In this document: piece after piece, positions 7,155 to 53,021 of the stretch
Layout: each line of letters opens with the position of its first letter
Position numbering within the stretch: the first letter of the stretch is position 1
Assembly: GCA_003021085.1 (NCBI GenBank)
Contig: PXRE01000009.1
Span: 16,334-80,333 of the forward strand
Source of the DNA: Halobacteriales archaeon QS_1_68_20
GTDB taxonomy: Archaea > Halobacteriota > Halobacteria > Halobacteriales > PXRE01
Length of the DNA: 64,000 nucleotides
Direction of reading: 5' to 3'
Made by a program: the position numbers and the translations under genes
The notes under the pieces: generated by a model
Databases searched by the model: none
Told to the model about the DNA's origin: nothing
Seen by the model: the letters and a program-made list of their open reading frames with translations, nothing else

Positions 7155-7175
7155 GTAATGGTGGGGGAGCAATTG

Positions 7176-10604: not shown

Positions 10605-12812
10605 ATGAGTTCGGACGGCGAGGGGATCGAGTTGACGGTCAAGGGTGCCGAGAAGCGCGACGCCGGCCGGGGGGTCGCCCGGGTGCCCGAAGACGCGCGC
10701 CAGCGGATGGGCGTCCTCAGCGGCGACACCGTCCTGATCGAGGGCGAGCGGACGGCCGTGGCCAAGGTCTGGCCGGCGGGGGCGGAGACCCCGCCGGGGA
10801 CCGTCCGCATCGACGCCGACACCCGCGCGAACGCCGGCGTCACCGTCGGCGACGCCGTGGCGGTGCGCCCGCAGGCGGTCGAGGACGCGCGTTCGGTGAC
10901 GCTGTCGCCGTCCGGGTCGATCTCCGAGAGCGAGCGCGAGGCGGTCGAACGCGTCGTCAAGCGCGACCTCCGGGACCGCCCGGTCAGCGAGGGCGAGCGC
11001 ATCCGCATCGAACGACTGGGCGGTGACCCCTTCGTCGTCAGCGCGACCGACCCCGAAGGGGTGGTCCGCATCACCAACCGGACGTCGATCACCGTCCGCT
11101 CGGGTGGGACTGCGGGAGCCGCCCCCTCCGCGCCGGAGGACGAAGGGCCGATGGACGTCACCTACGAGGACATCGGCGGCCTGGACGAGGAACTCGACCA
11201 GGTCCGGGAGATGATCGAACTGCCGCTGTCGGAACCGGAACTGTTCCGCCGACTCGGCGTCGACCCGCCGAAGGGCGTCCTCCTGCACGGCCCGCCGGGG
11301 ACGGGCAAGACGCTGATCGCCAAGGCGGTCGCCAACGAGGTGGACGCCTCCTTCCACCTCGTGAACGGCCCGGAGATCATGAGCAAGTACAAGGGCGAGA
11401 GCGAGGAGCGGGTCCGCGAGATCTTCGAGGAGGCCGAGGCGAACTCGCCCGCGATCGTCTTCTTCGACGAGATCGACGCCATCGCGGAGAAGCGTGAGGA
11501 CTCCGGCGACATGGAGTCCCGCGTGGTCGCCCAGTTGCTGTCGATCATGGACGGCCTGGACCCCCGGGGCGACGTGATCGTCATCGCCGCGACCAACCGC
11601 GTCGACGCCATCGACCCCGCGCTGCGGCGGGGCGGCCGGTTCGACCGCGAGATCGCCATCGGCGTCCCCGACGAGCAGGGCCGCCGGGAGATCCTGGCCG
11701 TCCACGCCCGGGGGATGCCGCTGGCCGAGGACGTGGACCTCGACCGCGTCGCCGCCCAGACACACGGCTTCGTCGGCGCCGATCTCGCCGCCCTCGTGAC
11801 AGAGGCCGGGATGTCGGCCCTGCGGCGGGTCCGGGGCGTCGGTAGCGGCGCGGACGCCGGCGACGGTGTGGAGGCGAGCGGTGCGGACGCCGATGCAGGA
11901 GACGCAGACGCTTCGGACGAAGACTCGGGCGGCGACGAGATGCTGGTGACACGCGCGGACTTCGAGGCGGCGCTCGCGGCGGTCGACCCCTCGGCGATGC
12001 GGGAGTACGTCGCGGAGACCCCGTCGGTGAGTTACGACGGCGTGGGCGGCCTCGACGAGGCGAAAGCCACCCTCAAGCAGGCCGTCGAGTGGCCGCTGTC
12101 GTACAGTCCGCTGTTCGAGGCGGCCCGGACGGACCCGCCAAGCGGCATCTTGCTGTACGGCCCGCCGGGGACCGGGAAGACGCTGCTCGCCCGCGCGGTC
12201 GCCAGTGAGAGCGGCGTCAACTTCATCCACGTCAACGGCCCGGAGATCATGGCCTCGGCCGTCGGCGCGGCCGAGGAGGCGGTCCGTGACGTGTTCGACC
12301 GCGCGCGCCAGGCGGCGCCCGCGATCATCTTCTTCGACGAACTCGACGCCATCGCGGGCCAGCGGGGACGCGGCGACTCCTCCAACGAGGTCGGCGACCG
12401 CGTCGTCTCCCAACTGCTGACCGAACTCGACGGCCTCGTGGACAACCCGAACCTGGTCGCGCTGGCGGCGACCAACCGCAAGGACGCCATCGACCCAGCG
12501 CTCCTGCGGCCGGGTCGCTTCGAGGAACACCTCCTCGTCCCCGAACCCGACCGGGACGCCCGCCGGGAGATCCTGGCGGTCCACACCCGGGGCAAGCCCC
12601 TGGCCGAGGACGTGGACCTCGACGATCTGGCCGACCGACTGGAGGGCCACACCGGTGCCGACATCGACTCCGTGATCCGGAGCGCCTCGCTCCTCGCGAT
12701 CGAGAAGGTGGCCCACGAGGTCAGTCCAGCCGAGGCCGCCGACCGCGCCAGCGACGTGGAGATCCGCGCCGAGCACGTCGAGGCCGCGCTCGAAGACGCT
12801 GGCATCGAGTAA
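10605..12812 (+). CDS. Cdc48/VCP-family AAA+ ATPase
   Basis: N-domain KRDAGRGVAR; two GPPGTGKT Walker A and FFDE Walker B motifs. Confidence 0.95.
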   Translation: MSSDGEGIELTVKGAEKRDAGRGVARVPEDARQRMGVLSGDTVLIEGERTAVAKVWPAGAETPPGTVRIDADTRANAGVTVGDAVAVRPQAVEDARSVTLSPSGSISESEREAVERVVKRDLRDRPVSEGERIRIERLGGDPFVVSATDPEGVVRITNRTSITVRSGGTAGAAPSAPEDEGPMDVTYEDIGGLDEELDQVREMIELPLSEPELFRRLGVDPPKGVLLHGPPGTGKTLIAKAVANEVDASFHLVNGPEIMSKYKGESEERVREIFEEAEANSPAIVFFDEIDAIAEKREDSGDMESRVVAQLLSIMDGLDPRGDVIVIAATNRVDAIDPALRRGGRFDREIAIGVPDEQGRREILAVHARGMPLAEDVDLDRVAAQTHGFVGADLAALVTEAGMSALRRVRGVGSGADAGDGVEASGADADAGDADASDEDSGGDEMLVTRADFEAALAAVDPSAMREYVAETPSVSYDGVGGLDEAKATLKQAVEWPLSYSPLFEAARTDPPSGILLYGPPGTGKTLLARAVASESGVNFIHVNGPEIMASAVGAAEEAVRDVFDRARQAAPAIIFFDELDAIAGQRGRGDSSNEVGDRVVSQLLTELDGLVDNPNLVALAATNRKDAIDPALLRPGRFEEHLLVPEPDRDARREILAVHTRGKPLAEDVDLDDLADRLEGHTGADIDSVIRSASLLAIEKVAHEVSPAEAADRASDVEIRAEHVEAALEDAGIE

Positions 12813-37981: not shown

Positions 37982-38449
37982 ATGGACGCGGTTCGAATCG
38001 CCTGGGGGACCGGGACGGGACCGACCGAACTGGCCGCCTACGACGCGGCGCTGGCCGACGCGAACCTGCAGGACTACAACCTCGTGACCGTCTCGTCGGT
38101 CGTCCCGGCGGGTGTCGAGGTCGAACAGGTCGGGACCGCACCGGACCTCGGGACGGCGGGCGAGCGCCTGCACGTCGTCCAGGCCCGCGCGACCGTCGAC
38201 GGGCCGGGCGAGGTGGTCGCCGCCCTGGGATGGGCGACCGGCGAGGACGCCGGCGTCGTCTACGAGGCCACGGGCGGGTCCGAGGCCGCGGTGCGCGACG
38301 AACTGGCGGCCGGCCTCGCCGCTGGCAGCGAATTACGCGACCGGACGATGGACGAGCGGGAGTTCCGGGTCGTCTCCGCGGATGGGGAACCGGACTGCGC
38401 CACGGCCGCGGTCGTGGTCGCGGCGTTCGGTCGGGGCGACCCGATCTGA
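37982..38449 (+). CDS. pdaD: Pyruvoyl-dependent arginine decarboxylase
   Basis: AYDAALADANLQDYNLVTVSSVVP with Ser-Ser cleavage site. Confidence 0.88.
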   Translation: MDAVRIAWGTGTGPTELAAYDAALADANLQDYNLVTVSSVVPAGVEVEQVGTAPDLGTAGERLHVVQARATVDGPGEVVAALGWATGEDAGVVYEATGGSEAAVRDELAAGLAAGSELRDRTMDEREFRVVSADGEPDCATAAVVVAAFGRGDPI

Positions 38450-38492
38450 CCGGACCTTTATAACCCTCGGGCTATTCTATGTAGCCTATCCG

Positions 38493-38873
38493 ATGAACGC
38501 GAACACCCCGTACGCAGGGCTGCCGGGCGTCACCCCGCCGGGCGAGCGCGCACCCGAGGACGTGTCCGAGGTGACCCCAGAGCAGCACCGTGCCCTCCGC
38601 GAGCACGTCTCCGAGATCGCGTCGCTGACCCGCGAGTACCTGCCCCACGAGTACGCGATCGGCGCCGAGGTCCGCCGCGGCGCGACCGGCCCGGAGGCGA
38701 CCGTCGCCGTCGAACCACCGGTCGGCCACCCCGTCAGCGCCGGCCTCTCGCCCGAACTGAACGACATCGAGGATCTCGACGTCGACGCCAGCGAGGTGGC
38801 CCGCGGCCTGGCCGCGACTGCGGCGTTGCAGGTCAAGCAGGCGATGGACGGCCATGACCTGGCCGCGCGATAG
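38493..38873 (+). CDS. Conserved haloarchaeal protein (DUF5811-like)
   Basis: MNANTPYAGLPG...PPVGHPVSAG...LAATAALQVKQAM. Confidence 0.8.
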   Translation: MNANTPYAGLPGVTPPGERAPEDVSEVTPEQHRALREHVSEIASLTREYLPHEYAIGAEVRRGATGPEATVAVEPPVGHPVSAGLSPELNDIEDLDVDASEVARGLAATAALQVKQAMDGHDLAAR

Positions 38874-38993
38874 GCCGGACCCGGCGGTCCGTTCTGCCTT
38901 CCGTCGCGGATCCGAGTGGCGACGCCGGGTGCCCGCTCGTAATCGCGTAACTGGCCCCCGAGCATTATTGCCCTACGTTGCCTTGTTCCGGAT

Positions 38994-39990
38994 ATGCCCT
39001 TCAGCGTCTCGTGGCACACGCTTCTGGACGAACTCGAAGACCTCCCCGAGGGGTCAACGCTCATCACGCTGCTGTCGCACGACCGATTCCGCGTCACCGA
39101 CGTACAGGAGCAAACGGGTCGTCATCGAGTTTCTGGACCGGGACATCGAGGAGACACGACCACTCCAACGCGACCAGGTCGAGACCCTCTATCGACGCAT
39201 CAGCGACGAGCCGGGCGGCTTCGACCTCGACCGGCTCCCGCCCGATGCCGACCCGTACCCTGCCGTGCTGAGCCTCCACCCGCGCTTCGAGGCCGATGAA
39301 GACGCCAGGGTCATCACCGAAACCGAAGGTCCGACCTCGACACAACTCCTCGAAAGCGAACCCGAGACGGACACTGCCGAGCGCACCGAACCGGACCTGG
39401 ACGTGTATGCGGACGCTCTCCTGCTCGTTGACGCGCTCGAACGCCACGAGGTCGAGGTGCTGGAGGAGATGGACACGGACGCGCTCGTGAACCTCTACAC
39501 CCTGCTCTCGGACGTACAGCGCAACGCCAACGACCTCCGACAGGACGTAGCCGACGTGCTGTTGAACCGGCTCCACCACGACCGCCCGGTGTCCGGTCCG
39601 TTCGGCTCCGTCCAACGTACCACCCGGCGCAATCGGTCGCTCAAGGACGACGAGGAGGTCCTGGAGACGCTCGAAGAGGTGGGTATCGACCGCGAGCGCG
39701 TGCTGGGTGTAGACCGTGATAAAGTAGACGACGCCCTTGAAGTGACAGAGCTGTCTGAATGCGACGTGTACGATATCGAGGAGTCCGAGTACGTCCGGAA
39801 GGCCGAGGTGGACGAGGAACGCAAGGAGACGCGCCTCCAGGGTCTCAAAGACCAGCTTGCGGCCGCCGAAGGCGACGAGGCCGAAGAACTGCGCGAGGAA
39901 ATCGAGGAACTGGAAGGCCGCATCGAGGAACTAACCGAATTCAAGTCCGGGTCGCAGTTTCATACGCGGGCGGGCGCAGGCGGTAAATAA
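38994..39990 (+). pseudogene. Accessory hypothetical protein with frameshift near 39112
   Basis: MPFSVSWHTLL...TDVQEQ joins RVVIEFLDRD if one A is removed from GAGCAAACGG. Confidence 0.7.
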
Positions 39991-40004
39991 GTAAATCCTG
40001 CTTC

Positions 40005-40018
40005 ACTTCCCCCAGAAG
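40005..40018. repeat. att core (left)
   Basis: ACTTCCCCCAGAAG; reverse strand reads FWGK-TGA. Confidence 0.88.
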
Positions 40019-40084
40019 AAGGCGAATCGTGTATACGGACGTCAACACAACTAAGTTGGTGGAGGTGTGAGTATCGGGTAGGCA

Positions 40085-40621
40085 ATGAGTGAGCAAGTTC
40101 ACATCCGCGTCGGTGAATCCCGCCACGAAAAGTGGGTCAATCACGCCGAAGCGGAGTACGACGGGAACATGTCGAAACTAATCCGCGCCGCGGTCGAGAA
40201 GGAAATCAGTGGAGCGGGCGACACCGCCACAGACGGCGCTCAGACGGTCGAACCGAACGGACGGATAGACGACATCCTAAACGGTGTTGAGGACAACGGA
40301 AGCGCCCTCGAAGCGATACAAGACCGCCTTGAGAACATGCACGACACCATGCTTTCGCAGGGTGGACTTCCCGATAAAGTGTTTTCCGACGTGTACGGCG
40401 CTCTACCCGTGGTGAAAGACGGCTTCGAGGGGGCGGACAAGGACGCTATCGCCGTGGAGTTCGGCGCGACGGCGGCAGAAATCGCAGACGACGCGGGTGT
40501 GTCCGAACTCGAAGCGGAGCGGGCGCTTGTCCAACTCCGCTACGAGGACGAATACAGTGGCGTGGAGATGTTGATGACTGAAGGGTTCGACTCGCCCCGC
40601 TACTGGTTGGAGGTACGCTAA
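40085..40621 (+). CDS. Ribbon-helix-helix protein with C-terminal HTH-like region
   Basis: QVHIRV...NMSKLIRAAVEKEI; TAATG coupling to the integrase. Confidence 0.75.
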   Translation: MSEQVHIRVGESRHEKWVNHAEAEYDGNMSKLIRAAVEKEISGAGDTATDGAQTVEPNGRIDDILNGVEDNGSALEAIQDRLENMHDTMLSQGGLPDKVFSDVYGALPVVKDGFEGADKDAIAVEFGATAAEIADDAGVSELEAERALVQLRYEDEYSGVEMLMTEGFDSPRYWLEVR

Positions 40622-41688
40622 TGAGTACCACGGACCCTATCGAGAGTTACCGCGATAGTTACGTTCTCCGTTCGCAGTCCGACGCGGCAGAAAACACGGT
40701 AAAGCGCCACGTCCGCCACCTCCGCATGTTCGAGACGTGGCTTCAAGAGCGCGGCAAGGATCTTCAAAGCGACATTGAGGTTGAGGATGACCTACTGCGG
40801 TTCCGTCGGTGGCTGAACCTGCGAGGGGCTGGCACCGAGTGTCCCGAGTGTGAGACGGTCGCGGACCCCTTCGAGGACCATTGTCCCGACTGCGGGGCCG
40901 ACGTATCGGAGGGTGAACCAGTCGGCTATTCGGAAGGGACTATCAAGAACGCCACGGGGGCCATTAGCAAATTCTTCCAGATTCGTCGCCCCGATGACCC
41001 GAACCCCGTAGACGAGTGGGAACCCACGGGGTCGGACGGCAAGTGGTCAATTACCACGGACAAGAAGCGGGCGACTCGGGAAGGTGTGTTCTACCTCGAA
41101 TCCGATGAGGTAGACCAACTGATTGAAGCGGCAGAGGGCTTTCGGGACAAACTGGTTATCCGTCTCCTGGTTTCCACGGGAATGAGGCGGTCAGAACTAA
41201 TCAGCCTGCGACTGAGGGACGTGGAGCCTGGCCAGAAGCGAATCCGTATCTACGAGCGGAAGAACGACGAGTATCGGACGGTCGGCTTTCGGTCGGACAA
41301 ACTGGCGCGGAACCTGCGGATGTGGATTGACCACCACAGAACGCAGGAATACGGGGCCGACGAAAGCGACTACCTCTTTCCGCCAGACGGGAAGGGGGAG
41401 AGTGACCACCTGGGGGCCACCGTGGTACGGGATATAGTGGTTGAAGCGGCAGAACGCGCGGATATTCAGCAGTCCTACGGGAGTGACGCCCTCGGGAGAA
41501 CACAACACCTTGTAACCCCCCACGCTCTACGGGCCACGTTCGCCGTCCAATGCGCCAAGAACGGGATTCCCGCCCCTATGGTGAAAGAGGCTCTTGGCCA
41601 CCACTCCCTGAACGTCACGGACATCTACACGTCCGTGATTGACGACGACGCGGCAGACATGATTCGGCGCGACGGACCTTCATTCTGA
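40621..41688 (+). CDS. Tyrosine integrase with inserted zinc ribbon
   Basis: TGMRRSEL, HALR, LGHH, IYT catalytic motifs; CPEC-x10-CPDC insert. Confidence 0.95.
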   Translation: MSTTDPIESYRDSYVLRSQSDAAENTVKRHVRHLRMFETWLQERGKDLQSDIEVEDDLLRFRRWLNLRGAGTECPECETVADPFEDHCPDCGADVSEGEPVGYSEGTIKNATGAISKFFQIRRPDDPNPVDEWEPTGSDGKWSITTDKKRATREGVFYLESDEVDQLIEAAEGFRDKLVIRLLVSTGMRRSELISLRLRDVEPGQKRIRIYERKNDEYRTVGFRSDKLARNLRMWIDHHRTQEYGADESDYLFPPDGKGESDHLGATVVRDIVVEAAERADIQQSYGSDALGRTQHLVTPHALRATFAVQCAKNGIPAPMVKEALGHHSLNVTDIYTSVIDDDAADMIRRDGPSF

Positions 41689-41852
41689 GTACCAACCGCG
41701 GACGGACCCACCTTCTACGACGCTACCCCACCTTCGGACAGTGGAAACACCGCTCCACGGGGTTCAGTGACCACCGACCGCCCCGCCCGTCGGGAGGACT
41801 CCCCGCGCCCGCCCCGCGTCGCGTCTAATCGGAACTGAGGACCCGCGCCCGC

Positions 41853-42494
41853 TCAGTCCGCCACGTCACTCAGTGACAGTCCCGCCCATTCGAGTAGTTC
41901 GAGGGCGTCGTAGTGAGGGACCACTACCACGTCGGGATGCCAGTGGTAGCGGGCGGTATGGGTGTCCTCCGCATACCCGTCCCCGTCGTACCTCACCGTG
42001 GCGACGCCCTCACTGGCCAGTAGGCTCCGCAGGTGGTCGCCGTCCACGTCGAAGCCCCGTAGGTCCACGTGGAGCGACCCGAATAGGGTCCCCACCCACG
42101 TCGCCCGCTCAGTGAGGACGAGACGCGCCGTGAGCGGTCGCAGTTGGGATACGTCCGTGGGTCCGTCGTAGGCCACGGACGGATGGGGGACCGACGTGAG
42201 CGCCCACATGTCGCTACTGGCGGGGTCAGTCGCTTCGACGTGGCGACGTGGGGAGTTCGCCAGCCACCCGAGCGCGTCCGCCACGGACGCCAACCGCCAC
42301 CGCTTGGTTGAAAACACCTCTAATCGGGATTCTGCGCCGTCGTCGCGGACGTTCGCCCCGAGAAGTATCAGGTACTCCACTACCGCCCGCTGGCGGTCGG
42401 ACAGTTCGGGGCGGTCGCAACGACCGACGGCGTAGTGTTGCCCAAGTCGCTCGAAGCGGTCGCCACACTGCGGACACCTGTTCACGGTTTTCAC
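41853..42494 (-). CDS. Degenerate LAGLIDADG endonuclease-like protein with N-terminal Cys/His motif
   Basis: CPQCGDRFERLGQH...C.RPELSDRQRAVVEYLILLGA...SVPHP...L.PLTAR pattern; start uncertain. Confidence 0.55.
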   Translation of the reverse strand: MKTVNRCPQCGDRFERLGQHYAVGRCDRPELSDRQRAVVEYLILLGANVRDDGAESRLEVFSTKRWRLASVADALGWLANSPRRHVEATDPASSDMWALTSVPHPSVAYDGPTDVSQLRPLTARLVLTERATWVGTLFGSLHVDLRGFDVDGDHLRSLLASEGVATVRYDGDGYAEDTHTARYHWHPDVVVVPHYDALELLEWAGLSLSDVAD

Positions 42495-42705
42495 GTAACT
42501 GAGCGGGAAACTACCCCGCTTAGAGACGATTTCTCGACATTTTGACGTATTTCGCAAAACCGTTTGCTACCATTCACTCCGCTGGATTCGTCCCACGGAG
42601 GACACCGCGCCCGCGTGATTCGCTCTTTGATTTCTCTAATTTTGTCGTTCATTTTTCACGTCCGTATCCGTCGGGGACGTATCAGTTTGCGGAGGTATCT
42701 TGACC

Positions 42706-42889
42706 GCCAGCATAATCCCCGCGCGTGGCTCCACGTCGGTGGACCGCTCCGCCACCGACTTGACCGCTCCACGCCCACATCCCCAACGGGCTTACCCTAT
42801 ACTACGCCCAGCGGACAGAGACGGCCTAAAACGGCGGTTTCCGTTTAGGCGGGTGTGAGGGGGTCGCCCCGTGTTGGAGCGTTGGGGCG
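42706..42889. repeat. Long imperfect inverted repeat, copy A
   Basis: Reverse complement aligns to 45952-46134. Confidence 0.85.
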
Positions 42890-43173
42890 GAGTTATTAAA
42901 TTGGGTTTGGCCATATCAGTTCTCCGACACTGGCGTCATCGCGTCTCTCGAAGGAATTGAGGCTTCTCACGGAATAACGGCCTTAGAACCGCTTAGAGCG
43001 TGTTAATAACGACTCACTCTAACTACGTACAAAGTGAAGGCAGTGGCCGAAGGCGACCACACGCGACGAACAGCGGACGCCCGTCTTAGGCGTTCTACTC
43101 CCCGCCCTCACTCTGATTACGGTATTAGTGTGAGGACGGTGGACGTGGACGGCCACCGCCTTGGTGATTAGAT

Positions 43174-43338
43174 ATGGCCCGTGACAAACGGATTCGACTG
43201 AGCGAGGACGAAAAGGCGATTCTGAATGACCTGCGGAAACGGCGGTTCGGGGGCGACCAAACCCCCTACGGCCACGTGGTCGCAGAACTCTGCCGATTCT
43301 ACGACGCAGAGACGCAGAACACGAACGTGAAACTATGA
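43174..43338 (+). CDS. Small RHH-like protein (54 aa)
   Basis: MARDKRIRLSEDEKAILNDLRKRRFGGDQTPYGHVVAELC; below ORF-track cutoff. Confidence 0.75.
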   Translation: MARDKRIRLSEDEKAILNDLRKRRFGGDQTPYGHVVAELCRFYDAETQNTNVKL

Positions 43339-43508
43339 GCGGGGCGGAAACCTGCGAATCAGACGGGTGTGAGGGGTGGCCCGAGTTCCCCGACGACGAC
43401 GGTGGTTACTACTGTCGTGGCTGTTACGACGGCGACCCCGAGTTTCGCCACGTTCCCGACGAACCGACTGGATACCGAACCGACCTGATTTCGAGGCTTC
43501 AAGCATGA
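43335..43508 (+). CDS. Small Cys-motif protein (57 aa)
   Basis: ATGA overlap; CESDGC...YCRGC. Confidence 0.7.
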   Translation: MSGAETCESDGCEGWPEFPDDDGGYYCRGCYDGDPEFRHVPDEPTGYRTDLISRLQA

Positions 43509-43600
43509 GAAAAATGTACGACGACAACGACATTCCCGACGAACTGAGCGACGACGAACAGACCACCAAATACACCATCCCGCTGGAGGATGACGAATGA
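43505..43600 (+). CDS. Acidic micro-protein (31 aa)
   Basis: ATGA overlaps at both ends; MRKMYDDNDIPDELSDD... Confidence 0.6.
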   Translation: MRKMYDDNDIPDELSDDEQTTKYTIPLEDDE

Positions 43601-43734
43601 CTGAAATAAATCCCATGTTGGCGCGAAAGGCGCGGAACGTCGGTGTGGAGTCCGACCTATTCGACTATACCGACCGCCAGAACGTCGATATTGAGGCGGT
43701 TCTTGAAACCGCCCTTGGTGAGGTGAGCGCATGA
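43597..43734 (+). CDS. Small protein (45 aa)
   Basis: ATGA overlaps; preceded by GGAGG; MTEINPMLARKAR...GEVSA. Confidence 0.65.
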   Translation: MTEINPMLARKARNVGVESDLFDYTDRQNVDIEAVLETALGEVSA

Positions 43735-43994
43735 ACGCCCTCACGGTCAAGAACCACCAGAACGTGGACGCCTTCGACCGCCTCACCCTCAACACGGAGG
43801 GACGCCTTGAGTTCGAGGACGGGACGCTTACGGCGGTCTACCCCGACGGCGCGGAGGAAACGGAATACGTGGTGGCGCTATTCCCCGTGGAGGGCGGGAC
43901 GGTCGAACTCACCGACTCCGCCGTGGTCCTCGAAGCGACGGGGGACACCGTGGTGGCGTTGGTCCCTGCGACGGCCTACGGGGGTGGTGAGTGA
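43731..43994 (+). CDS. Hypothetical beta-rich protein (87 aa)
   Basis: GAGGTGA SD and ATGA overlap; acidic. Confidence 0.75.
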   Translation: MNALTVKNHQNVDAFDRLTLNTEGRLEFEDGTLTAVYPDGAEETEYVVALFPVEGGTVELTDSAVVLEATGDTVVALVPATAYGGGE

Positions 43995-44679
43995 TGTACG
44001 ACGTTCGAGAAGCGCGGGACCGCGACGGCGACCCCGTGGAGGACCGCAGTGAGCGGATAGACGAACTCATGCGGAGCGACCGCGTGGGATACGGGGACGG
44101 CGACCCGTTGGCGGCAGATTCCTACTCGAACTACCCCGACCACCCCACGGAACTGTCCGCGCCCAAGTGGCGCGACTGGGTGGAGGTGCTTCTTTCCCAC
44201 CCTGCGGTCGGTTCCTACGACGACGCGGTGGCGGAGGCGACGCCCGCCAGTGACCAAGTGAGTGTTAGACAGTGGCGTGAGGGGATTCAGAACGCCGCCA
44301 ACGCCGCGGGCTTGGACGCGGGGGAACTTTCGACCTTAGCGACGACGGCGAACGGGACGCCACTGCGGACGCTCTGAGCGCCTTCACGGAACAGTGGCCC
44401 GACGACGCGGTACGGTCGAATAACCCGCTCGTGGTCGCCAACTTGTACGCGGGGCGTGGCCTGTCCACGGCGGAGGTGGCGGACCTATTCGACTGTTCGG
44501 AGGACCACATTCGGGGCGTTCTCCGCCAGTGTAGCCTACTCGAAGCCGCGGAAAGTGAACAGGTGGACCCGAAGCGCGAGAAGGACATTCGGCTTGGCGG
44601 GGCGACCGTCTCGAATCTGGATAACGCCGAACGGTCCAGCAGTGGCGGGCTGAACGTGGACGTGAGCGCGTTCGAGTAG
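43994..44679 (+). pseudogene. HTH protein split by a -1 frameshift near 44328
   Basis: GAA CTT TCG vs GAA CTT TTC GAC; the -1 frame continues to GLSTAEVADLFDCSEDHIRGVL. Confidence 0.65.
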
Positions 44680-44750
44680 CGGGCGGTAACTGAGCGGTAT
44701 GGTCGGGGTGGCGGTCGCTTCCCCGATTGGCCCACGTGACGGGCTTCATT

Positions 44751-45395
44751 ATGACGGCGACCACCACCCAACAGCGGTACGATTGGCAGACTGAGGAACA
44801 GATAGCAGAACAAGAGTTCGCAGACGGCTACCACGTCGAACGGGACCGACGGACCCCCGAACGTGACGGGTCCAACGACGCCCTCGAACACGACCAGAAC
44901 GAGGGGAACCCGAACGCCACGACCATGTACGGGGGTCGCTCCTCGAACGGGTACGACCCGAACGAGCGACTCCCCGCTTGTGAGCGGTGGGCGACCAAGG
45001 GCGACAAGTTCGCCAGTCTGTGGGCGCGGAACGCGGGGGTAGATTCCCACCGCGCGCCACGTCGTAGTCGGGCGGAATGTAACAAGGCCAACGAACGAAC
45101 CAAGGACCGCCAGCGGTTCGTTCAAGCCGTCGCCAACGCCCTACGGTTAGGGGAGGACGCGACGGAGCGGGCCAAGGAACTGGCGACCCTCCCCACGCCA
45201 AAGACCCTGAATTTCATCGGGGGACTGGATACGTGGCTTCTCGCGGTCACCCTCCACGCCGCCAACGAACAGCGGACGGTCATGCGGGTGGACCGCGACG
45301 CCCTCAAGGAGATTCGAGCGGACTGGGGCGTCACTACGGACCAACTGGCGACCGCCACCGAAAAGGTGGCGAATATCGTGAGGAAAGGGGCATGA
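44751..45395 (+). CDS. Divergent TFB/TFIIB-like protein (single cyclin repeat)
   Basis: RFVQAVANALRLGEDATERAKEL...LDTWLLAVTLHAANE...KEIRADWGVTTDQL resembles a TFB cyclin fold. Confidence 0.55.
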   Translation: MTATTTQQRYDWQTEEQIAEQEFADGYHVERDRRTPERDGSNDALEHDQNEGNPNATTMYGGRSSNGYDPNERLPACERWATKGDKFASLWARNAGVDSHRAPRRSRAECNKANERTKDRQRFVQAVANALRLGEDATERAKELATLPTPKTLNFIGGLDTWLLAVTLHAANEQRTVMRVDRDALKEIRADWGVTTDQLATATEKVANIVRKGA

Positions 45396-45688
45396 CTTAC
45401 GTCGAACAGTATGGGGTCCGAATCCCTGACGACGACGTGGCGAAGCGCATGGCCCGTTTGGAGAAACCCCACCGCGACGAAACCGTGTTGAAGTATCTCC
45501 ACTTCGAGTTAGGCATGTCGTCTGGCGACATCGGGCGACTGTTCGGGGTGAGACGCCAGACCATTCAGAAAGTGGTCCGCGGATTCGACTGGGAATTTCA
45601 CCGACGGCGCGGGGATAGTCGCGTGGTCGGGGAGGAACAGCGGACGCTTGGCGAGTTCGAGCGGACCACGCTTGAGGACCTGATTTAG
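45392..45688 (+). CDS. HTH DNA-binding protein
   Basis: ATGA overlap; GMSSGDIGRLFGVRRQTIQKVV. Confidence 0.8.
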   Translation: MTYVEQYGVRIPDDDVAKRMARLEKPHRDETVLKYLHFELGMSSGDIGRLFGVRRQTIQKVVRGFDWEFHRRRGDSRVVGEEQRTLGEFERTTLEDLI

Positions 45689-45951
45689 CCGACCCTTCTT
45701 TTTCAACGTATCAAAAACGGCGTAGCAGTCGCTCAGTCGTTTGAAATCGTACAAAAAGCGAAAAGCGGGAAAGGTCGTAGCGGGCCACCACCCAGTGACC
45801 ATACCGTGACTGCGAATGTCCCGACTGAGGACGGACGACAACTGAGGCAGGTCACGGGCGTCCTTTTCGCCTCTCCGCCTCACTCATATGTATGCCCTGC
45901 GGATAGAGACGGCCTGAGACGGCGGTTTTCAGATATTGGCCCGCTGGCGGT

Positions 45952-46134
45952 CGCTCGAACGCTCAAACACGGGCGGACCCCCGCGTGGGGACGAAAACGG
46001 ATTCGGGCGGTACAAGCGTTCTCTGTCCGCAGGGCATAGTATTAGGTAGGCCCGTGAGGGGGAAGGGCGTGGAGTAGTCAAGGCGGTGGCGGGCGGTCAC
46101 ACCGTCGTGGAGCCTGCGCGGGGATGTTGCTGGC
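45952..46134. repeat. Long imperfect inverted repeat, copy B
   Basis: Pairs with 42706-42889. Confidence 0.85.
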
Positions 46135-46201
46135 TTTCGTATTATGCAATAATTGAAACATCGTCGTGAACTTGATAGAGTTGGCGAGAGGCCGTTTTTA
46201 T

Positions 46202-46684
46202 ATGGTAAACATCGCTAACATTCTCGCAACAAGTGGATTAGGGCTTGATATTGTCGGAGCCGCCGTCATCGCTCTCCCCGACATCCCAAGACTGAGACTT
46301 GTTCTTGGGTCGGCAGTTATTCGGAATGGACTTGAAAAAATGGAGAGTACGGGGATTCAAGAAGGCGAAATCGGATATTCGCCGCTCAGGGAATTACTTG
46401 AGACGAAATACGACGTAGAGTTTCCATCCGATGTATGGGCCTTCAGAGTAGGTCAGTCCACTGCGTCAAGATATGGGTATGAATCTGTATTTTTGTTCAC
46501 CGACCCTGAAGATGAGTCAGAGCAGGTGGCATTAGGTAAAGACTTGGGGGTTGATGTTGATTACCGCGTGGTCAGAAAACAGATTCGACCACTTCTCGAC
46601 CGACAGCAGGCTATTGTCCGCGCAAGTGGTTTCCTTTTACTGAGTCTTGGGTTTCTTCTACAAATCGTGGCGCGATATATTTAG
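46202..46684 (+). CDS. Low-GC membrane cargo protein (N- and C-terminal TM helices)
   Basis: GLGLDIVGAAVIAL...GFLLLSLGFLLQIV; AT-richer than neighbours. Confidence 0.75.
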   Translation: MVNIANILATSGLGLDIVGAAVIALPDIPRLRLVLGSAVIRNGLEKMESTGIQEGEIGYSPLRELLETKYDVEFPSDVWAFRVGQSTASRYGYESVFLFTDPEDESEQVALGKDLGVDVDYRVVRKQIRPLLDRQQAIVRASGFLLLSLGFLLQIVARYI

Positions 46685-47016
46685 GTGGGTAAATTAGTCC
46701 ACGCCGAGCGCGGCCAATTGGGTCCTCACTGAGAAAACAGAAAATGAGGCTCAAACACGGGTGTGGGGGTCGCCACATATGCGCCAGAGTGATTTTCAAC
46801 ACGTGGCGGGCGCTCACCCACCCCTTACACTACGCGAGAAGGGACCCGTTTCGTGTGTAATGTTGACGGGGAGGGGTGGATTCGGTCGCCGTCTGGCGGT
46901 TTCGAGGCGTTCGAGAGAAGCCATTCCTCACCAACCTATCAGACTGTTAGAGTGGTCTGGCGGGTTAGACCCCCGATAGCCCCTGAACTGTATACACAGG
47001 CGACTACACAAAACGC

Positions 47017-48828
47017 CTACTTCCCCCAGAAGGGGTCCCGCGACCGGCGCTTCTCCAGGTACATGTTCAGCGCCTCCCGCTCGTCCATCGGGATGTCCTC
47101 CAGCAGTTCCTGCTCCAGGATCTTTGCGTGTTTCTCCGGCAGGTACGTCCAGAGTTCGTCGCCCTCGTCGACCTGGCGGCCGACCGTCGGGCCGTCGATG
47201 GCGACGCTCATCCGCTCGCCCGCGCGGGCCTCGTCGACGTCCTCGCCCTGGTCCTGGATGCCCTGGACCTCGCCGACGCGCTCGGGGTCGTCGCCGTCGA
47301 ACTTCGCCACGCCGACGTTGCGCTCCAGGGTGCCGGACATGACCTCGACGCCGATCACCGCGGGATCGGACTGGCGGAAGACGTGGTCCTCCAGGATGCG
47401 GAACCGGCACGGCCGGGTGATGTTCTCGAGCACCTGCTCCTGCTGGGCCTGCTCCAGTTCCTCGACGAACTCCTCGTATTCCTCGACCAGGCGGTAGATG
47501 ACCTCGCTCTCGAAGATGCGGACGTCCGCCAGGTCTGCCTCGTCGGCGGCGTCGTCGAGCACGTCCACGTTGAACCCCAGGACGACCCGGTGTTCGGGCT
47601 GATCGGCGGTGTCTGCGACCGTCACGTCACGGGGAGCGACGTCGCCGACCTCCGCGCGGACGATGGGGACCTCCGCCTCTTCGAGGGCGTCGGCCATCGC
47701 TTCGAGGCTGCCGAGCGTGTCGGCCTTGACGACGACGCCGTCCTCCTCGGTGCTGACGGCGACCTCGGCGAGTTCGGCCCGGACCTCAGCGACGACGTCC
47801 TCCACGGGGCGGTCGCCGACGACCCGGACGGGCGCCCCGGCCATCGCGTCCGCCAGTTCCGGGGCGGCGATCTTGATCCCGGACGCGGCCGTCACGTCGG
47901 GGACCTGCTCGAACCGGCTCTCGGCGCGAATCTCGGCGAGCGACCGGGGTTTCAGCAGTGCACGGACGTCGGTGACGATCGGTTCCTCGGTGCCGCCGAC
48001 GACGATCCGGTCGTCCTCGCTGATCGTCCCGTCGTACAGGACGACGTCGACGGTGGTGCCGAACCCCTTCTCTTCCTTGACTTCGAGGACGGTGCCGGCC
48101 CCCGGTCCGGAGACGTCGATCTCCATCTCTTCCCGGAGGTACCGCTGTGACAGGCCCATCAGGACGGTCAGCAGGTCGGGGATGCCCTCGCCCGTCTTCG
48201 CGCTGACGGGGACGACGCCGACGTTGGCCTGGAAGTCCTGCACGCGCCAGTACATGTCCGCCGAGAACCCGGCGTCGCTGAGGTCGCCGATGATCTCGTA
48301 CAGCGAGTCGTCCAGTCGCGAGGTCGCGTTGTCGCTCTGGGCCTCGTAGGTTTCCTGGATCGGCGTGTCCTCGTTGGGGTTCCACCCGGGGACGGCGTCG
48401 ATCTTGTTCGCGGCGACGACGAACGGCGTCTCCGAGCGCCGGAGGATGTCCAGGGCCTCCTCGGTCTGGGGCTGGAAGCCGTCGTTGACGTCCACGACGA
48501 GGATGGCGATGTCCGCGAGCGCCCCGCCGCGCGCCCGCAGGGTCGAGAACGAGTGGTGGCCGGGCGTGTCGATGAACAGCAGGCCGGGCAGGTCGAAGTC
48601 GTCGGGATCGACGAGCCGGCCCGCGACCGTCGAGACGACGTCCAGGGGGACCGCCGTGGCGCCGATGTGCTGGGTGATCGCGCCGGACTCGGCCTCGGCC
48701 ACGGTCGAGCCGCGGACCTTGTCCAGGAGGGTGGTCTTGCCGTGGTCGACGTGACCCAGGACGGCGACGATGGGCGTGCGAAGCGTCTCGGAGGCCGGGA
48801 TTTCGGGGTCTTGATCGGGTTCCGACAT
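47017..48828 (-). CDS. infB: Translation initiation factor IF-2 (aIF5B)
   Basis: GHVDHGKT, GAITQHIG, DTPGH, NKID, KADTLGSLEA; ends DPFWGK. Confidence 0.97.
   Translation of the reverse strand: MSEPDQDPEIPASETLRTPIVAVLGHVDHGKTTLLDKVRGSTVAEAESGAITQHIGATAVPLDVVSTVAGRLVDPDDFDLPGLLFIDTPGHHSFSTLRARGGALADIAILVVDVNDGFQPQTEEALDILRRSETPFVVAANKIDAVPGWNPNEDTPIQETYEAQSDNATSRLDDSLYEIIGDLSDAGFSADMYWRVQDFQANVGVVPVSAKTGEGIPDLLTVLMGLSQRYLREEMEIDVSGPGAGTVLEVKEEKGFGTTVDVVLYDGTISEDDRIVVGGTEEPIVTDVRALLKPRSLAEIRAESRFEQVPDVTAASGIKIAAPELADAMAGAPVRVVGDRPVEDVVAEVRAELAEVAVSTEEDGVVVKADTLGSLEAMADALEEAEVPIVRAEVGDVAPRDVTVADTADQPEHRVVLGFNVDVLDDAADEADLADVRIFESEVIYRLVEEYEEFVEELEQAQQEQVLENITRPCRFRILEDHVFRQSDPAVIGVEVMSGTLERNVGVAKFDGDDPERVGEVQGIQDQGEDVDEARAGERMSVAIDGPTVGRQVDEGDELWTYLPEKHAKILEQELLEDIPMDEREALNMYLEKRRSRDPFWGK
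47019..47032. repeat. att core (right), within the infB 3' end
   Basis: ACTTCCCCCAGAAG overlapping the infB FWGK codons and stop. Confidence 0.88.
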
Positions 48829-49041
48829 AGATGTGCCCTCCGGGAAAAGGTTCTTACTTCGATGGAGTCGCGCGCGCGGTTTAAGCGCACGGGTTCGGCC
48901 CGGGGCGGCCAGCACGGCCCGGCACGCCGACGTCACCAGCCGACGGTTTCGGGCACCCCACCCGATTCCGTCGGTCCCACGATGGTTAGCCCCGTGACAG
49001 GAAAATTTTTTAACAGATGGCCGTGAGGGACGTCCAGAGTC

Positions 49042-52000
49042 ATGAACGACGATCGACATGACGACCCGGTCGAACTGCTCAGGCGGGAACTGCTCCGGAG
49101 CGGGGCGGTTCTCGGCGGGACGGCCGGATTGAGCTTCGGTGGGGCCGCGTCCGCGTGGTCCCGGGGGAGCGGCGGCGCGAACGCGCTCGCGCCGTCGTCG
49201 GACTCGACGTACGTCATCGAGCAAGGTGGGACCAGGATTCCACTGGCCACGGTCGGTGACTCGGGGACCCCGATCGAGGAGATCTACGACGCGAGCGACG
49301 ACGCGACGCCGACGGGGTACGAGGAGGAGGGCGTCAGCAAACTGTTCCTCGTCGAGCGCACCGACGAACCGGGTCTCGGGGTCGTCCACGACCGCGGGAA
49401 CGACCGCCTCCCGTCCGGGGGCGTCGTCGACGACTTCGAGGACGGCGACCTCGACGAGTACAGCCAGCACCGTGGTGGCAGCGCGGCAGTTACCTCGACC
49501 AGGCCTTTCGAGGGGTCGCACTCGCTGGAACTGACGACCCCCGGTGGCGGCGGCGCGTCGAAGGTCCTCTCGACGTCCGGCCTGGAGCGGTACCCCGAGG
49601 CCGGCGACGTCTACCGCACGCGGTGGTACCGCAGTAGCTCGGACTCTCGTGGCCGGAACCGGCTGTACTTCGGCGTCCAGGACGCCGCCAACTACTACGA
49701 GGTGTACGTCAACTACCCGCACAACGACTTCGAACTCCGGAAGTTCGTGGACGGGAACCGGACGACCCTCGCGTCCGCGAACGAGACCCCCCGGAAGGAC
49801 ACCTGGGTCGACTGGACCATCGACTGGGGGACCGACGGGACGATCACGGCCACGTACGACGACGGGCAGAATTCGGGGTCGCTGACCGCGACGGACGACC
49901 AGTGGACCGAGGGCGGCGTCGGGTTCTACCAGCAGGTCGCGTCGGGTGGCGTGAAGGCGTGGTTCGACGACGCACGGATTGTCTCGGGGTCTTCAACGGT
50001 GGTACTCGACGGCTTCGAGGACGGCGACGTGAGCGAGTACGCCGAGGACGCCGACAATACGGGACCGGCGTCGTTCCGGGCGGTCCCGGCGTCAGACGTC
50101 GGACTGGCCGCCCCGGAGGGGTCGACGGTCGGCCAGTTACAGGTCGACGGGACGCTGGACGGGTGGTGGACGGACCTGGGCGACCGGGGTCGGACGATCC
50201 AGGCCGGCGACCGGTTCGGCTTCCACGCGTACAACGGCAAACAACACGGGACGGTCTCGCTGACGTACTGGCGCAACGTGGGCGAGGCCGCGACCACCGG
50301 GCTGACGTTGCGCCTCGAGTACAAGTCCCAGCAACTGATCTGGCGGGACCGCGCCGACGGATCGACGTATGCCAGCGCGGACCAGTCGCTGGCCGCCGAC
50401 ACCTGGTACTGGGTGGAAGTCGAGATCTCCGACGACGGGGCCACGCACACGGCCAAACTCTACGACGAGCGAGGCGGGACGCTGCTGAACTCGCTCTCGG
50501 CGGAGTTCCCCGGCGGACAGGCGGACGGGATCGAGTGGCGCTACGGCTGGTGGAACCTCGACGGGACCGCGTACGTCGACGGCCTCGAACTGCTGGAGAC
50601 GGACCGGACGGACACCGGCGGGGCCCCTGGGTCGTCGAGGACGAACTGACGTCGTACCTCCCCGACGAGGGACTGGCGCACTGGCAGTGGGGTGCCAGCG
50701 AGGCCGCCGGCGGCGTGCTCAGTGGTGCGCTCCCGGGTGAGGACGGCCTGACGATCCGCCCCTCGTTCGGGGACAGCTCCGGGATCGACGACTGGCAGGT
50801 GCTCTCGACCGGGACCGGCTCCACGTCGGGGTTCTCGACGGACTTCGAGGGCGGTCTCGCGGACGCCTGGCAGGACGCGGCCGACTTCGGGACCGACGAC
50901 GGCGACCTGGTCGCCAGCGGTGGCGGCAAGATGTGGCGCGAGCAGTCCTCGGCCACCGGCGTCTTCGAGGTGCAGGACGTCCAGAACACTGCCAGCTACA
51001 CCGGGATCCGGAGCGCGTTCGTCGCCCAGGAGACGAAGTACGATGGCGCCGAGGGGTACGGCCTCCGGTGGATCCAGCACAGGAACGACAGCAACGACGA
51101 GGACTACTGGAGCGGGGACATCCGGCTGGAGCGACTGGATTCGCCCGCCGACAAGGGCCCGACGACGCTGGCGAAATTGACCGCGGACCACGACGGGCGG
51201 GTCAACACGGTCCGCGTCGAGCGCACGAAGACCGACGAGAGCGACGACGGCGACGAGGAGTACACCTTCGAGTGGACGCTGACGTACGCGGACGGGACCA
51301 CGAAGAGCGGGACGTACGTCGAGGGGTTCGACGAGACGTCCTACACCGAGTCGGACTACTGGGTGCAACGGCACGATTCCGGCGGCGCAAGCCAGCGTGT
51401 CGGCGGCATCAGCGTCGAGGGCAGGGACGGGGTCGGGTGGACGTCGCTGTCGACCGAGGACCCGGTGACGATCCGGACGGAGGTCAGCAGGGACCTCCAG
51501 ACGTACGTCGGGTACAAGCGCGACAAGATCGAACGGATCAGGAACATCACGACGGCGATGTTCGCCGACTACGACACGCCGAAGGATCCGGCGTCCGTCG
51601 ACTCCGCGGCCGAGCGGTACCTCGACAACCTCGAACCGCGGCTGGACGAGATGGGCCCCGACGAGGCCAGACTGCACATGGAGGTCCTCCAGCGGCTGAA
51701 CGCGGGCGAGCGCGTCAGCTTGGCGGCGTTGAACGCAGTGAACGCGGAACTTGGGCTGAACGACCAGACCGTCGTCGAGCAGTTCGCGGACGCGGCGGTC
51801 GACGCCCTCTCGTCGTTCATGATGGGCAAACTGTTCGAGCGGGTCGCCAGGGTCGGCCGCGCCGGCTCCTCCAGCGCGACCCGAAAGCTCATCCAGTCGT
51901 CGACCTTCGAGGACTTCGTCACGGGGCTGAACCGCCAGGTCGACAGCGTCTTCTTCGGGTCGACGTTCGGCGACGAGTTCTACGAGCGAATCGTCCGCAC

Positions 52001-53021
52001 CGTCAAGCGCGACCAGCTCGCGTTCTACCACCTCTGGGAGGACGACGACCTGGGCGGGAGCATCACGAACCTCTACCAGACCTCGATCAAGCACGGCGGA
52101 TCGCTCCCGTCGTTCGACGAAGGCGGGAACCTCGCCGGGGCGAGCTTCTTCACGCAGGTCGAGAAGATGCTCGACGAGGCCAAGCGGTACGTCGAGCGGA
52201 CGACCTACGAGTCGGCGGTGTTCCGTGACGACGGCATCCCCAACCAGATGCCCGTCGAGTTCGGCCCGGTGAGCAGGGAACTGCCGAACATCCCGGACGC
52301 GGTGCCGGTCCCGTACGCCGACGAGGCCGAGGACGCCGCGAACACGGTGCTGGGCTGGATCGAGGAGACCGCCGAGAGCGCGGGCGAGATCAAGGAACTC
52401 CCGTCGGTGAACATCGAGCAACTGGAGGACCCCGAGATCGACCTCCCGGACGAGATCCCGCTGCCGGACGCCTGGTCGTTCCCCGAAGAGGTCGGGATCG
52501 ACCGGATCGAGATCGACGCCGGCCGGGCCATCAACCAGGTCGACGAACTCATCCCGCTGGGGTACTCCGGGGTCGGTGCCGAGCTCGCCGAGGAGGTGAC
52601 GATCCTCGTCGACAAGGTCAGGGAGGGCGAACTCGACCGCCAGCCCGCCGAGATCCGCTCGAAACTCGTCTCGCTGTACGTCGACTTCTACGAGCAACTC
52701 GTCGCGGGGATGGAGGTGATGTTCACCGGTTACGACGTGATGCGGAAGATCGGCGACATCGCCGAGCGGATCGCCCTGGGCGTCGCGGGCGTGACCGTCC
52801 TCGTGGTCTCGATGCTGTCGCTGATCGGGTTCGGCGCCGGCCTCGTGCTGGTGCCGGTCCTGGCCATCTACGTAGAGATCATCGGCCTGTTGAACGTGGT
52901 GGTCGCGGCCGTCGAGGGGATCACCGGCTACGCCTTCCTCGCCACCGCGATGACCGGGCACAGCGCCTCCGTCACGAAGCTGTTGAACGCGGACCTGAAG
53001 CGCCTGGAGGAGGTGCTGTAG
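49042..53021 (+). pseudogene. Large Tat-exported multidomain protein, frameshifted near 50625
   Basis: RRELLRSG Tat signal; repeated D(D/G)FEDG beta-sandwich domains; helical C-terminal half with hydrophobic segments. Confidence 0.7.

Follow-up and report, generated by a model that had tools for sequence, protein, structure and literature searches.

A small integrase-bearing element at the 3′ end of haloarchaeal infB and its family of probable cryptic integrated elements

What kind of element occupies the 3′ end of the infB (aIF5B) gene of Halobacteriales archaeon QS_1_68_20, and how might it move? We analysed a 64-kb stretch of DNA from this archaeon (hereafter the window), in which positions 40005–47018, 7,014 bp, form an insertion at the 3′ end of infB. 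We propose, with a probability of roughly 60%, that this insertion is a site-specific cryptic integrated element (CIE) belonging to an uncharacterised family of small (4–7.4 kb) haloarchaeal elements. A preliminary description of the same DNA had proposed a discrete integrase-bearing element whose att repeats regenerate the FWGK-stop end of infB, and precise boundaries, repeats and an empty site bear out both claims. ACTTCCCCCAGAAG occurs in exactly two copies of 14 bp each in the window, at 40005–40018 (attL core) and 47019–47032 (attR core); with up to two mismatches allowed there are four matches against 0.25 expected, a number reached in none of 100 shuffles. The G+C content of the 7,000 bases between the repeats is 0.600, against 0.681 and 0.688 in the 10-kb flanks. 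The attR core comprises the last four infB codons and the first base of the stop, and the TAG at 47017–47019 that closes the C terminus (…DPFWGK) is completed by element DNA; the attL core with the two bases to its left reads FWGK-TGA, the original infB end. Because the core is duplicated and a new stop is supplied by the element, the essential infB gene (47017–48828, minus strand, 603 residues from MSEPDQ) stays intact, and its product matches Pfam GTP_EFTU, IF-2 and GTP_EFTU_D4. Nucleotide homology with two related loci (L043 and L080) and with a contig of a metagenome run (X2) starts exactly at 40005, and no tRNA gene was found in the window or in four related loci. The direct repeats at both ends, one of them inside the target gene, are accompanied by an integrase gene adjoining one end and by an empty site.

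The empty site, an attB that the preliminary description had suggested looking for, was found among public sequencing runs. Sixteen runs share words with the stretch; all of this material consists of assembled contigs rather than reads, and four runs were compared. The probable source run (X1) holds a contig identical to 39903–46865. In run X6, from another sample of the same study, a 333-nt contig of depth 7.3 joins position 40004 to 47019 with no mismatch, skipping the 7,014 bp, and 14 nt at the junction fit both sides. Depth in X6 is zero in nine bins over 40122–42470 and at most 0.17 in every bin to 46907. The contig is the unoccupied attB of the same host background. One host population is found in both states, occupied and empty, to the exact base pair, and the element is therefore mobile now or was very recently. 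Presence and absence in two samples of one study, between flanks that are 100% identical, argue against an immobile relic, by which we mean an old, fixed genomic island with an inactive integrase; so do two perfect att cores and an intact integrase, and we hold this explanation to be highly improbable.

The gene to the left of attL (38854–39990) was considered as part of the island and rejected, since the empty-site contig joins it directly to infB. It belongs to a multi-copy haloarchaeal family of acidic coiled-coil proteins of about 290–350 residues, without a Pfam family, that is present in two or three copies in several genomes and has two further partial matches in the window's assembly. 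The first 39 residues are encoded in a different frame (shift near 39110), so that the gene is either frameshifted or mis-assembled, and it adjoins infB in none of 11 relatives' loci. To the right of infB, two long plus-strand open reading frames (ORFs; 535 and 1,039 residues) occupy 49042–53021.

Integrase, partner gene and attP

The integrase gene (40621–41688, plus strand) encodes a tyrosine integrase that matches PF00589 at E = 1.7e-30 (106.5 bits, cut-off 27.1). Its best sequence matches in the Protein Data Bank (PDB) are the archaeal XerA structures 5hxy and 4a8e, with conservation of R..E, HxxR and H..Y: GMRRSE, HALR and GHHSLNVTDIY align with TGVRVGE, HVLR and GHASVATTQIY of XerA. The protein scores 140.4 bits against the XerA equivalog NF040815, under the cut-off of 220, and a weak match points to a Zn-ribbon insert in its N-terminal domain at about residues 68–94. 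The integrase occurs once in the assembly. Judged by the retained E and H of its sequence, by its target infB and by its one accessory gene, placed upstream, the integrase is not of the SNJ2 type. In a tblastn search of a phage collection, the 25 of 38 matches listed (E ≤ 1e-5) include no record named as a haloarchaeal virus.

Upstream, and overlapping the integrase start by 1 nt, lies e1 (40085–40621, plus strand), which encodes a putative DNA-binding protein of 178 residues. The two genes had been described as a ribbon-helix-helix (RHH)–integrase pair. The integrase half of that label is borne out by the PF00589 match; the RHH half is not, as e1 has no family in Pfam, PHROGs or NCBIfam and its monomer model (predicted local distance difference test, pLDDT, 70.4) shows an RHH-like two-helix N terminus (helices 11–24 and 29–41) with no strand, and a C-terminal winged helix. 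Foldseek matches the model to MarR-like winged helix-turn-helix (HTH) domains at E = 7.5e-3. Homologues of e1 number 34 in 5.8 billion clusters, all unnamed or 'hypothetical', and their named sources are Halobacterium, Halomicrobium, Halorubrum, Halopiger and unclassified Halobacteriales archaeon. Co-translated e1 would probably help or steer the integrase, and it is likely to be a directionality factor and/or a repressor.

Reading both element ends joined, as they would be in a circle, gives the layout of attP. The P′ arm (40019–40084, plus strand) carries TTGTGTA(TAC) 8–10 nt from the core and, ahead of the first gene, a conserved leader, ACACAACTAAGT; the P arm (46804–47018) carries CTACACAA 7 nt and GTATACAC 21 nt from the core and is conserved with the element of Halorientalis marina. 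In the reconstructed site, CTACACAA stands about 7 nt to the left of the core and TTGTGTA about 8 nt to the right. The 14-bp core carries the dyad CTTC-CCCCA-GAAG, which in the window extends into the element arms as GCCT-N-CTTC … GAAG-N-AGGC. TACACAA and TTGTGTA flank the core in all five infB elements for which both ends are available; a relative in another gene (G243, below) has an unrelated core, yet the same TGTGTAG motif lies there inside a 21-bp perfect inverted repeat. This layout matches the expectation for a tyrosine recombinase substrate, and the motifs are candidate binding sites of the integrase. From this anatomy we propose that the XerA-like integrase would recombine an attP made up of the 14-bp core, its CTTC/GAAG dyad and the TACACAA/TTGTGTA flanks with the conserved last codons of infB (…FWGK-stop). 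A review of archaeal tyrosine recombinases asks, in the part of it available to us, whether attB sites in protein genes have the needed dyad symmetry (PMC8371274), a question on which the infB core with its dyad bears.

Relatives at infB and elsewhere

Members of the family were sought by comparing the integrase with one genome per species, and the integrase, the TFB-like gene e11 (below) and the element DNA with 401 genomes of the order; an e1 profile was run against JGI metagenomes, and individual loci were read. Homologous integrases beside infB, which the preliminary description had proposed to search for, emerged in a set of seven att-bounded elements and two remnants at this gene. In addition to the 7,014-bp element of the window (G000), the seven comprise that of a Halobacterium sp. 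metagenome-assembled genome (G271; split over two contigs and estimated at 7 kb at least, integrase 96% identical, homology starting exactly at the core), that of a complete chromosome labelled Halomicrobium sp. LC1Hm (G076; 5,647 bp, with a DDE transposase gene inserted in that of the integrase), that of Halorientalis marina GDY88 (5,809 bp between the outer att copies, with another, degenerate one before e1), and three from metagenome contigs: M080 (7,386 bp), M081–83 (one element over three contigs, about 4.4 kb, attR not found at ≤1 mismatch) and M084 (4,134 bp). Those with both ends on one contig span 4,134–7,386 bp. The remnants are an att-bounded 3.2-kb stretch with a truncated e1 and no integrase in G050 (L088 869–4092) and a stretch with only the C-terminal part of e1 in G228 (L089 2184–4503). 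Counting the window's genome, five of the 401 sampled genomes carry an element or remnant at infB. Homologues thus occur in relatives that are themselves small (4.1–7.4 kb) and att-bounded, not only inside larger proviruses or plasmids.

A further relative, G243, shows that the target is not fixed. Its element of 6,502 bp lies in the 3′ end of an enoyl-CoA hydratase gene, between 15-bp repeats (TAGTGCCACGGGAAC) that cover the last codons, and its gene order is that of the window: e1 (63% identical), integrase (about 50%), e3, e4, e5, e9/10, the TFB-like gene and e12. In all intact members e1 is present and translationally coupled to the XerA-like integrase. The elements are a coherent, previously uncharacterised haloarchaeal family of minimal mobile elements whose att sites are exact, whose attP motif is conserved and whose targets are two or three different protein genes. 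We found no work combining infB or aIF5B with an integrase and no description of the family, and infB is not among the protein-gene targets listed in the available part of the tyrosine recombinase review (PMC8371274).

The relatives also bear on whether the element has stopped moving. G271 belongs to another family of archaea, and its e1–integrase module is 93.7% identical to that of the window at the nucleotide level, which implies recent horizontal spread and tells against a relic. What would suit a relic is decay: in the remnants of G050 and G228, in the integrase of G076 disrupted by an insertion sequence, in the degenerate inner att copy of H. marina, and in a frameshift that splits a cargo gene of the window itself (e9/e10, below).

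The short members of the family (4.1–5.8 kb) are without the whole operon and e3, yet have exact or near-exact att sites. The cargo of M081 includes a ThsB-type TIR protein (PF08937, 34.5 bits, cut-off 21.2; also called ThsB by PADLOC), that of G076 an Mrr_cat-like protein scoring at the cut-off, and that of H. marina a weak HEPN_Apea match under the cut-off. Antiviral-type genes (TIR, Mrr-like) thus travel on this archaeal chassis. Two or three hydrophobic proteins of 71–79 residues are common to G076, H. marina and M081. We considered these as capsid proteins of spindle viruses and dropped the idea as unsupported, having found no match in Pfam, PHROGs or the phage collection.

Several loci showed further features. 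In G076 (L077 9805–10867) the integrase holds a 1.06-kb insertion with a DDE_Tnp_1 transposase (PF01609, 1.9e-12). The H. marina locus (L044) has att-like copies at 8518 (one mismatch), about 9380 (degenerate) and 14327 (exact), which may be left over from a tandem integration; the 0.9-kb segment between the first two (8518–9400) encodes a 218-residue membrane/Zn-ribbon protein. A distant e1–integrase pair (29% and 32%) lies in G024 (L079 7238–11442) on a stretch of about 4.2 kb of low G+C content (0.40–0.55) between 13-bp repeats, AACTGGGTGTTCG, as its putative borders. Two soil metagenomes from two other studies (X2 and X3) hold contigs 90–97% identical to the e1–integrase–e3 part, up to about 42800, and cover most of the operon and e13 with few short pieces only.

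In many relatives of the order, infB is followed in the ancestral order by a convergent small gene, a pyruvoyl arginine decarboxylase gene (ArgDC) and the gene for the proteasome-activating nucleotidase (PAN). Of 29 relatives' loci, 15 have the convergent small gene no more than 1.5 kb from infB, and where a distance of 20 kb was allowed, 14 of 20 have it; in a relative of the same genus (G002) the gap is about 50 bp. The protein end DPFWGK-stop, present in 24 of the 28 relatives printed, is near-invariant across the order, so the integrase could serve as a broad-host tool for integration into haloarchaea. The infB end was also considered as a general hot spot for other elements, and this was rejected. 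Each relative's own infB core was sought at ≤1 mismatch within 20 kb in a position fitting an att site, and 0 of 20 relatives has a plausible second core, the single one-mismatch match (L059) lying 8.7 kb away, beyond the conserved neighbour genes; the infB site therefore serves this family and not elements at large. One relative (G039, L057, about 140–11240) has an 11-kb insertion between infB and the conserved neighbour, without a repeat of the infB core.

Cargo genes and possible modes of transfer

Between the integrase and attR, the preliminary description had listed a LAGLIDADG-like gene, a coupled operon, a TFB-like gene, long inverted repeats and one membrane cargo gene. The operon, the inverted repeats and the membrane gene hold as named, and the TFB-like gene does so at the level of fold; the LAGLIDADG label has support through homologues only and none in direct search, and two ORFs listed as separate prove to be one gene.

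The LAGLIDADG-like gene is e3 (41853–42488, minus strand; the ORF extends to 42557, and homologues start at about residue 26), which encodes a Zn ribbon and a LAGLIDADG-like N-terminal domain. It has no direct match to PF03161 or PF00961; among its homologues (107 representatives), residues 27–128 of e3 align where five of ten scanned match PF03161 (LAGLIDADG_2), and e3 matches gp143 of the virus HVTV-1, a LAGLIDADG gene, at E = 3e-5. The N-terminal 100 or so residues form the LAGLIDADG-like part, and the C-terminal half is without an assigned domain. The orthologue in G243 is 48% identical.

The operon runs on the plus strand, with overlaps of 4 nt from each gene to the next from e4 to e9 and again between e11 and e12. 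Its first gene, e4 (43174–43338), encodes 54 residues whose sequence pattern suggests an RHH-like protein; it has no Pfam or PHROG family and a 67% identical orthologue in G243. The next, e5 (43335–43508), encodes a 57-residue Cys-motif protein, a putative zinc finger, with a 52% identical orthologue in G243. Three small acidic proteins follow at 43505–43994, e6 (31 residues), e7 (45) and e8 (87), the last two with orthologues in M080 and G271. The gene e9/e10 (43991–44679) contains an HTH (weak HTH_23 match) and is split by a frameshift, the frame changing near 44325–44340, into what had been read as ORFs 43991–44377 and 44431–44679; it is a single intact gene of 226–245 residues in G271, M080 and G243. 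Across the frameshift the window is matched by a Logan contig from the source run, so the assembly is reproducible there at least.

The TFB/TFIIB-like gene e11 (44751–45395, plus strand) is recognised mainly by fold. It is modelled (pLDDT 59.8) with a disordered N terminus and one cyclin-box repeat, at residues 109–214, within its C-terminal 105 residues. VIA-align places TFIIB first (7o4i_M, Z 11.9, rmsd 2.5 Å over 100 residues), with TFB of P. woesei at Z 9.8 and cyclin folds in all of the first 37 rows, a level of Z that helical models can reach by chance; the Foldseek top ten are all TFIIB, at E = 8e-3 to 0.13. The protein itself has no Pfam match, as to a Zn ribbon, and only the one cyclin repeat is modelled; its positional orthologue in G243 matches the TFIIB Zn ribbon PF08271 at E = 9.8e-7 (28.7 bits, cut-off 29). 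Close homologues of e11 number five in 5.8 billion proteins, with one weak match among 400 other genomes. Downstream, e12 (45392–45688, plus strand) encodes a 98-residue HTH protein (weak Pfam HTH; phrog_664, DNA-binding protein, 4.8e-4), 46% identical to its orthologue in G243; the M080 orthologue is extended at its C terminus by a part that resembles HNH on visual inspection.

The slot beside attR holds e13 (46166–46684, plus strand), a membrane protein of 172 residues with two hydrophobic segments, at about 19–37 and 150–168. The e13 region has the lowest G+C content of the element (0.51). It has no family in Pfam, PHROGs, NCBIfam or PADLOC, its Protein Atlas neighbours are all unnamed clusters, and a 67% nucleotide match to it occurs in G279. 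The cargo would thus consist almost entirely of DNA-binding and transcription proteins (LAGLIDADG-like, RHH-like, Zn, HTH and TFB-like) with one membrane protein. A TFB-like factor and many small regulators without recognised replication or virion genes make an unusual set, which raises the question of how the element moves.

Inverted repeats of about 185 nt bracket the operon. Arm A (42706–42889) faces e3 and arm C (45952–46134) faces e13, so that both point outward; they are 75% identical, a 120-nt core is 74% complementary, and a partial direct copy (45891–45928) precedes arm C within 45891–46134. Inverted repeats bracket the operon in all three long elements examined (window, G243 and M080), as pairs of 44 nt (95%) and 30 nt in G243 and as a 36-nt pair (81%) in M080, where one copy lies just downstream of the integrase gene and the other near attR, so that the operon is enclosed only loosely. 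The arms were not found elsewhere in the assembly. Arm C is 79% identical to a 180-nt stretch upstream of two small membrane-protein genes in G354. The arms are, in our view, shared promoter or operator modules; they may instead be an invertible switch or an origin. Structured RNA was considered and rejected, six folds giving z-scores of -1.97 to +1.6, and Rfam returned no match at E ≤ 1 over 38000–49000. In G354 (L090 4415–5158) the hydrophobic genes downstream of the arm-C-like stretch (79 and 76 residues) also occur in the short infB elements, and the stretch adjoins a gene for an 882-residue protein with, by eye, the look of a McrB-type AAA+ NTPase (GPPGTGKT motif).

The preliminary description had found no recognisable replication initiator (Rep) or capsid gene, and profile searches agree. 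Rep, primase, helicase and capsid families are absent from the 13 window ORFs in Pfam, and Rep and virion families from the ten largest in PHROGs and NCBIfam and from four in PADLOC. Rep-Arvir (PF25227/DUF7845) was matched neither in ORF scans nor when the whole assembly was searched in six frames, with a control genome positive. The whole element has no nucleotide match in phage and plasmid collections, e11 none among plasmids by tblastn, and an e11 alignment none in a JGI metagenome scan; the assembly itself holds no short element match at E ≤ 1e-5. For the hallmarks of a pleolipovirus provirus (spike, internal membrane protein and NTPase core genes, or a Rep), PHROGs and Pfam gave no match, their only hits in the ORFs being the integrase and weak HTH matches, and no search with named pleolipovirus proteins was made.

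One reading of these absences, which the preliminary description had suggested, is dependence on a helper: a virus satellite would leave the chromosome when a helper halovirus infects or is induced, use the TFB-like and other regulators to redirect transcription in helper or host, and be packaged in particles made by the helper. Small size, an integrase and the lack of a recognisable Rep or virion gene would suit a satellite, as would a cargo dominated by transcription regulators and the defence-like genes in the variable slot of relatives, which recall those of bacterial P4-like satellites in the part of the literature at hand (PMC13586616); integrase-bearing archaeal satellites exist, an example being pSSVi, which is named in a preprint (bioRxiv 10.1101/2025.02.15.638363). 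The searches speak otherwise. No homologue of a helper morphogenesis gene was found in PHROG, Pfam and phage-collection searches, nor the major capsid protein (MCP), ATPase and Rep that define SRCEs, and the LAGLIDADG domain is the only nucleotide or protein link to the phage collection. Two IMG/VR scans, sensitive to close relatives only, turned up none of the integrase or of e11. Across 401 genomes, with no spacer database, matches of 41–43 nt occur in G400 and G377 without periodic, CRISPR-like repeats around them. In the source run the element contig has a depth of 9.5, similar to the 5.8–12.6 of flank contigs, depth not being copy number. With no virion-module homologue, CRISPR-spacer match or circular form found, no link to a helper emerges, and we regard a satellite as unlikely but possible. 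More speculative still, and to us quite doubtful, is the thought that the family comprises the first integrative satellites of haloarchaeal viruses, analogues of phage-inducible chromosomal islands (PICI) and P4. In that case 4–7 kb islands at the 3′ ends of protein genes that are essential or conserved would excise on helper infection, seize transcription with the TFB-like factor and small repressors, and then travel in particles of the helper or else obstruct it with their TIR, Mrr or HEPN cargo, the inverted repeats being the switch.

Alternatively, the element could be an integrative plasmid or minimal virus, autonomous after excision, with an initiator that escaped recognition in e9/e10, e3 or e8 and with the inverted repeats or the restored junction as origin or promoter. 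Structure alone continues to reveal new Rep families in archaea; Rep-Arvir/DUF7845 had long been annotated as unknown or as a regulator, as stated in the part of the source used here (PMC13107129). Integrases that have diverged by 50% are accompanied by the same conserved backbone of e3, e4, e5, e9/10, e11 and e12, the operon is framed by inverted repeats in each long element examined, and many e1 and e11 homologues sit on contigs of 4–7 kb. Short members without operon and e3 nevertheless keep their att sites, and the function of the operon is therefore not needed for membership of the family; two of the metagenome contigs (6.5 and 8.0 kb) are chromosomal, since they include infB; and ORF scans revealed no motif of an ssDNA or dsDNA Rep, a primase or a helicase. 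We think this explanation decidedly improbable.

Several points weigh against a cryptic integrated element. The lack of a Rep rests on profile searches of small, fast-evolving proteins, of which two were modelled, and the C-terminal half of e3, e8 or e9/10 could be a novel initiator. The models of e1 and e11 are of modest confidence (pLDDT 70.4 and 59.8), with all Foldseek E values above 0.001. At 81.5% completeness, the host assembly could fail to show a helper virus. No attP circle or back-joint was found among the contigs of the four runs, contigs dropping rare forms; excision is not demonstrated, and the presence/absence polymorphism could stem from one past insertion. The e9/e10 frameshift suggests that this copy may be partly decayed. 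We nonetheless favour a cryptic integrated element. With no recognisable initiator or virion protein, it would most likely persist by replication with the chromosome, and its transfer would depend on an outside agent, for which cell fusion or mating, vesicles and a virus are candidate routes.

Comparison with known systems

Nearest to the family stand the cryptic integrated elements of Thaumarchaeota, which, in the sections of the survey available to us, are likewise small and integrase-bearing with no recognisable hallmark genes of viruses or plasmids (PMC6563490). Their att sites measure 8–26 bp, with one example of 13 bp, and 14 of 68 elements lie in 3′-distal parts of protein genes; genes for EF-2, a translation GTPase, are recurrent targets there, of casposons (PMC6563490). 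In NitEve-E2 the original stop is replaced by one derived from the element and the ORF is kept, as in the window, where TGA gives way to TAG (PMC6563490). The suggestion of an undescribed class was thus too strong, 3′-distal integration into protein genes with a replaced stop being already described in that survey (PMC6563490), and an undescribed family of a known kind fits. As far as those sections go, the window element differs in host phylum, integrase lineage, target and gene content, and its family has features of its own in the e1–integrase module, the operon with the TFB-like gene, and the motif of attP. The survey gives the closest description, and 'haloarchaeal cryptic integrated element' is the most fitting label for the insertion in the window.

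Other integrases invite comparison. XerA, the chromosome-dimer resolvase (5hxy, 4a8e), has the same catalytic residues; the window integrase differs in its N-terminal Zn-ribbon insert, in being borne on an element beside att sites, and in its score (140 against 220 bits). SNJ2-type systems share haloarchaeal hosts, a 14-bp core, an integrase–accessory operon and a module combined with varied cargos, in the passages of their description that we drew on (PMC5861418). Those integrases have Glu/Asp-I changed to Gly/Ala and His/Trp-III to Ala/Val, where the window integrase keeps E and H, and they use tRNA targets and two small, co-transcribed accessory ORFs downstream, where the window has the end of a protein gene and a single upstream accessory (PMC5861418). 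The strain-specific inserts of Halobacterium salinarum (divSEG14, divSEG31 and the 10,007-bp NRC-1 insert) are likewise 3–10 kb long with one integrase-domain gene, a protein-gene target and direct repeats of 8–13 bp, by the excerpted account (PMC7002104). Compared by that description, they split their target into N- and C-terminal parts, whereas the window element keeps infB whole (PMC7002104).

Finally, the family can be set beside small parasites of archaeal viruses, of which pSSVi is integrative. At 2.7–9 kb, pSSVi and pSSVx of Saccharolobus and the haloarchaeal SRCEs match the window element in size, as given in the part of the preprint used here (bioRxiv 10.1101/2025.02.15.638363), and they and the window's family are candidate parasites of parasites in hypersaline settings. 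SRCEs and pSSVx carry plasmid Reps with a spindle-virus ATPase and/or MCP, none of which was found in the window element, and SRCEs are circular episomes, whereas the window element is seen only integrated (same preprint, same part). What is new here is the family and its target infB; the kind, a cryptic integrated element, is already known.

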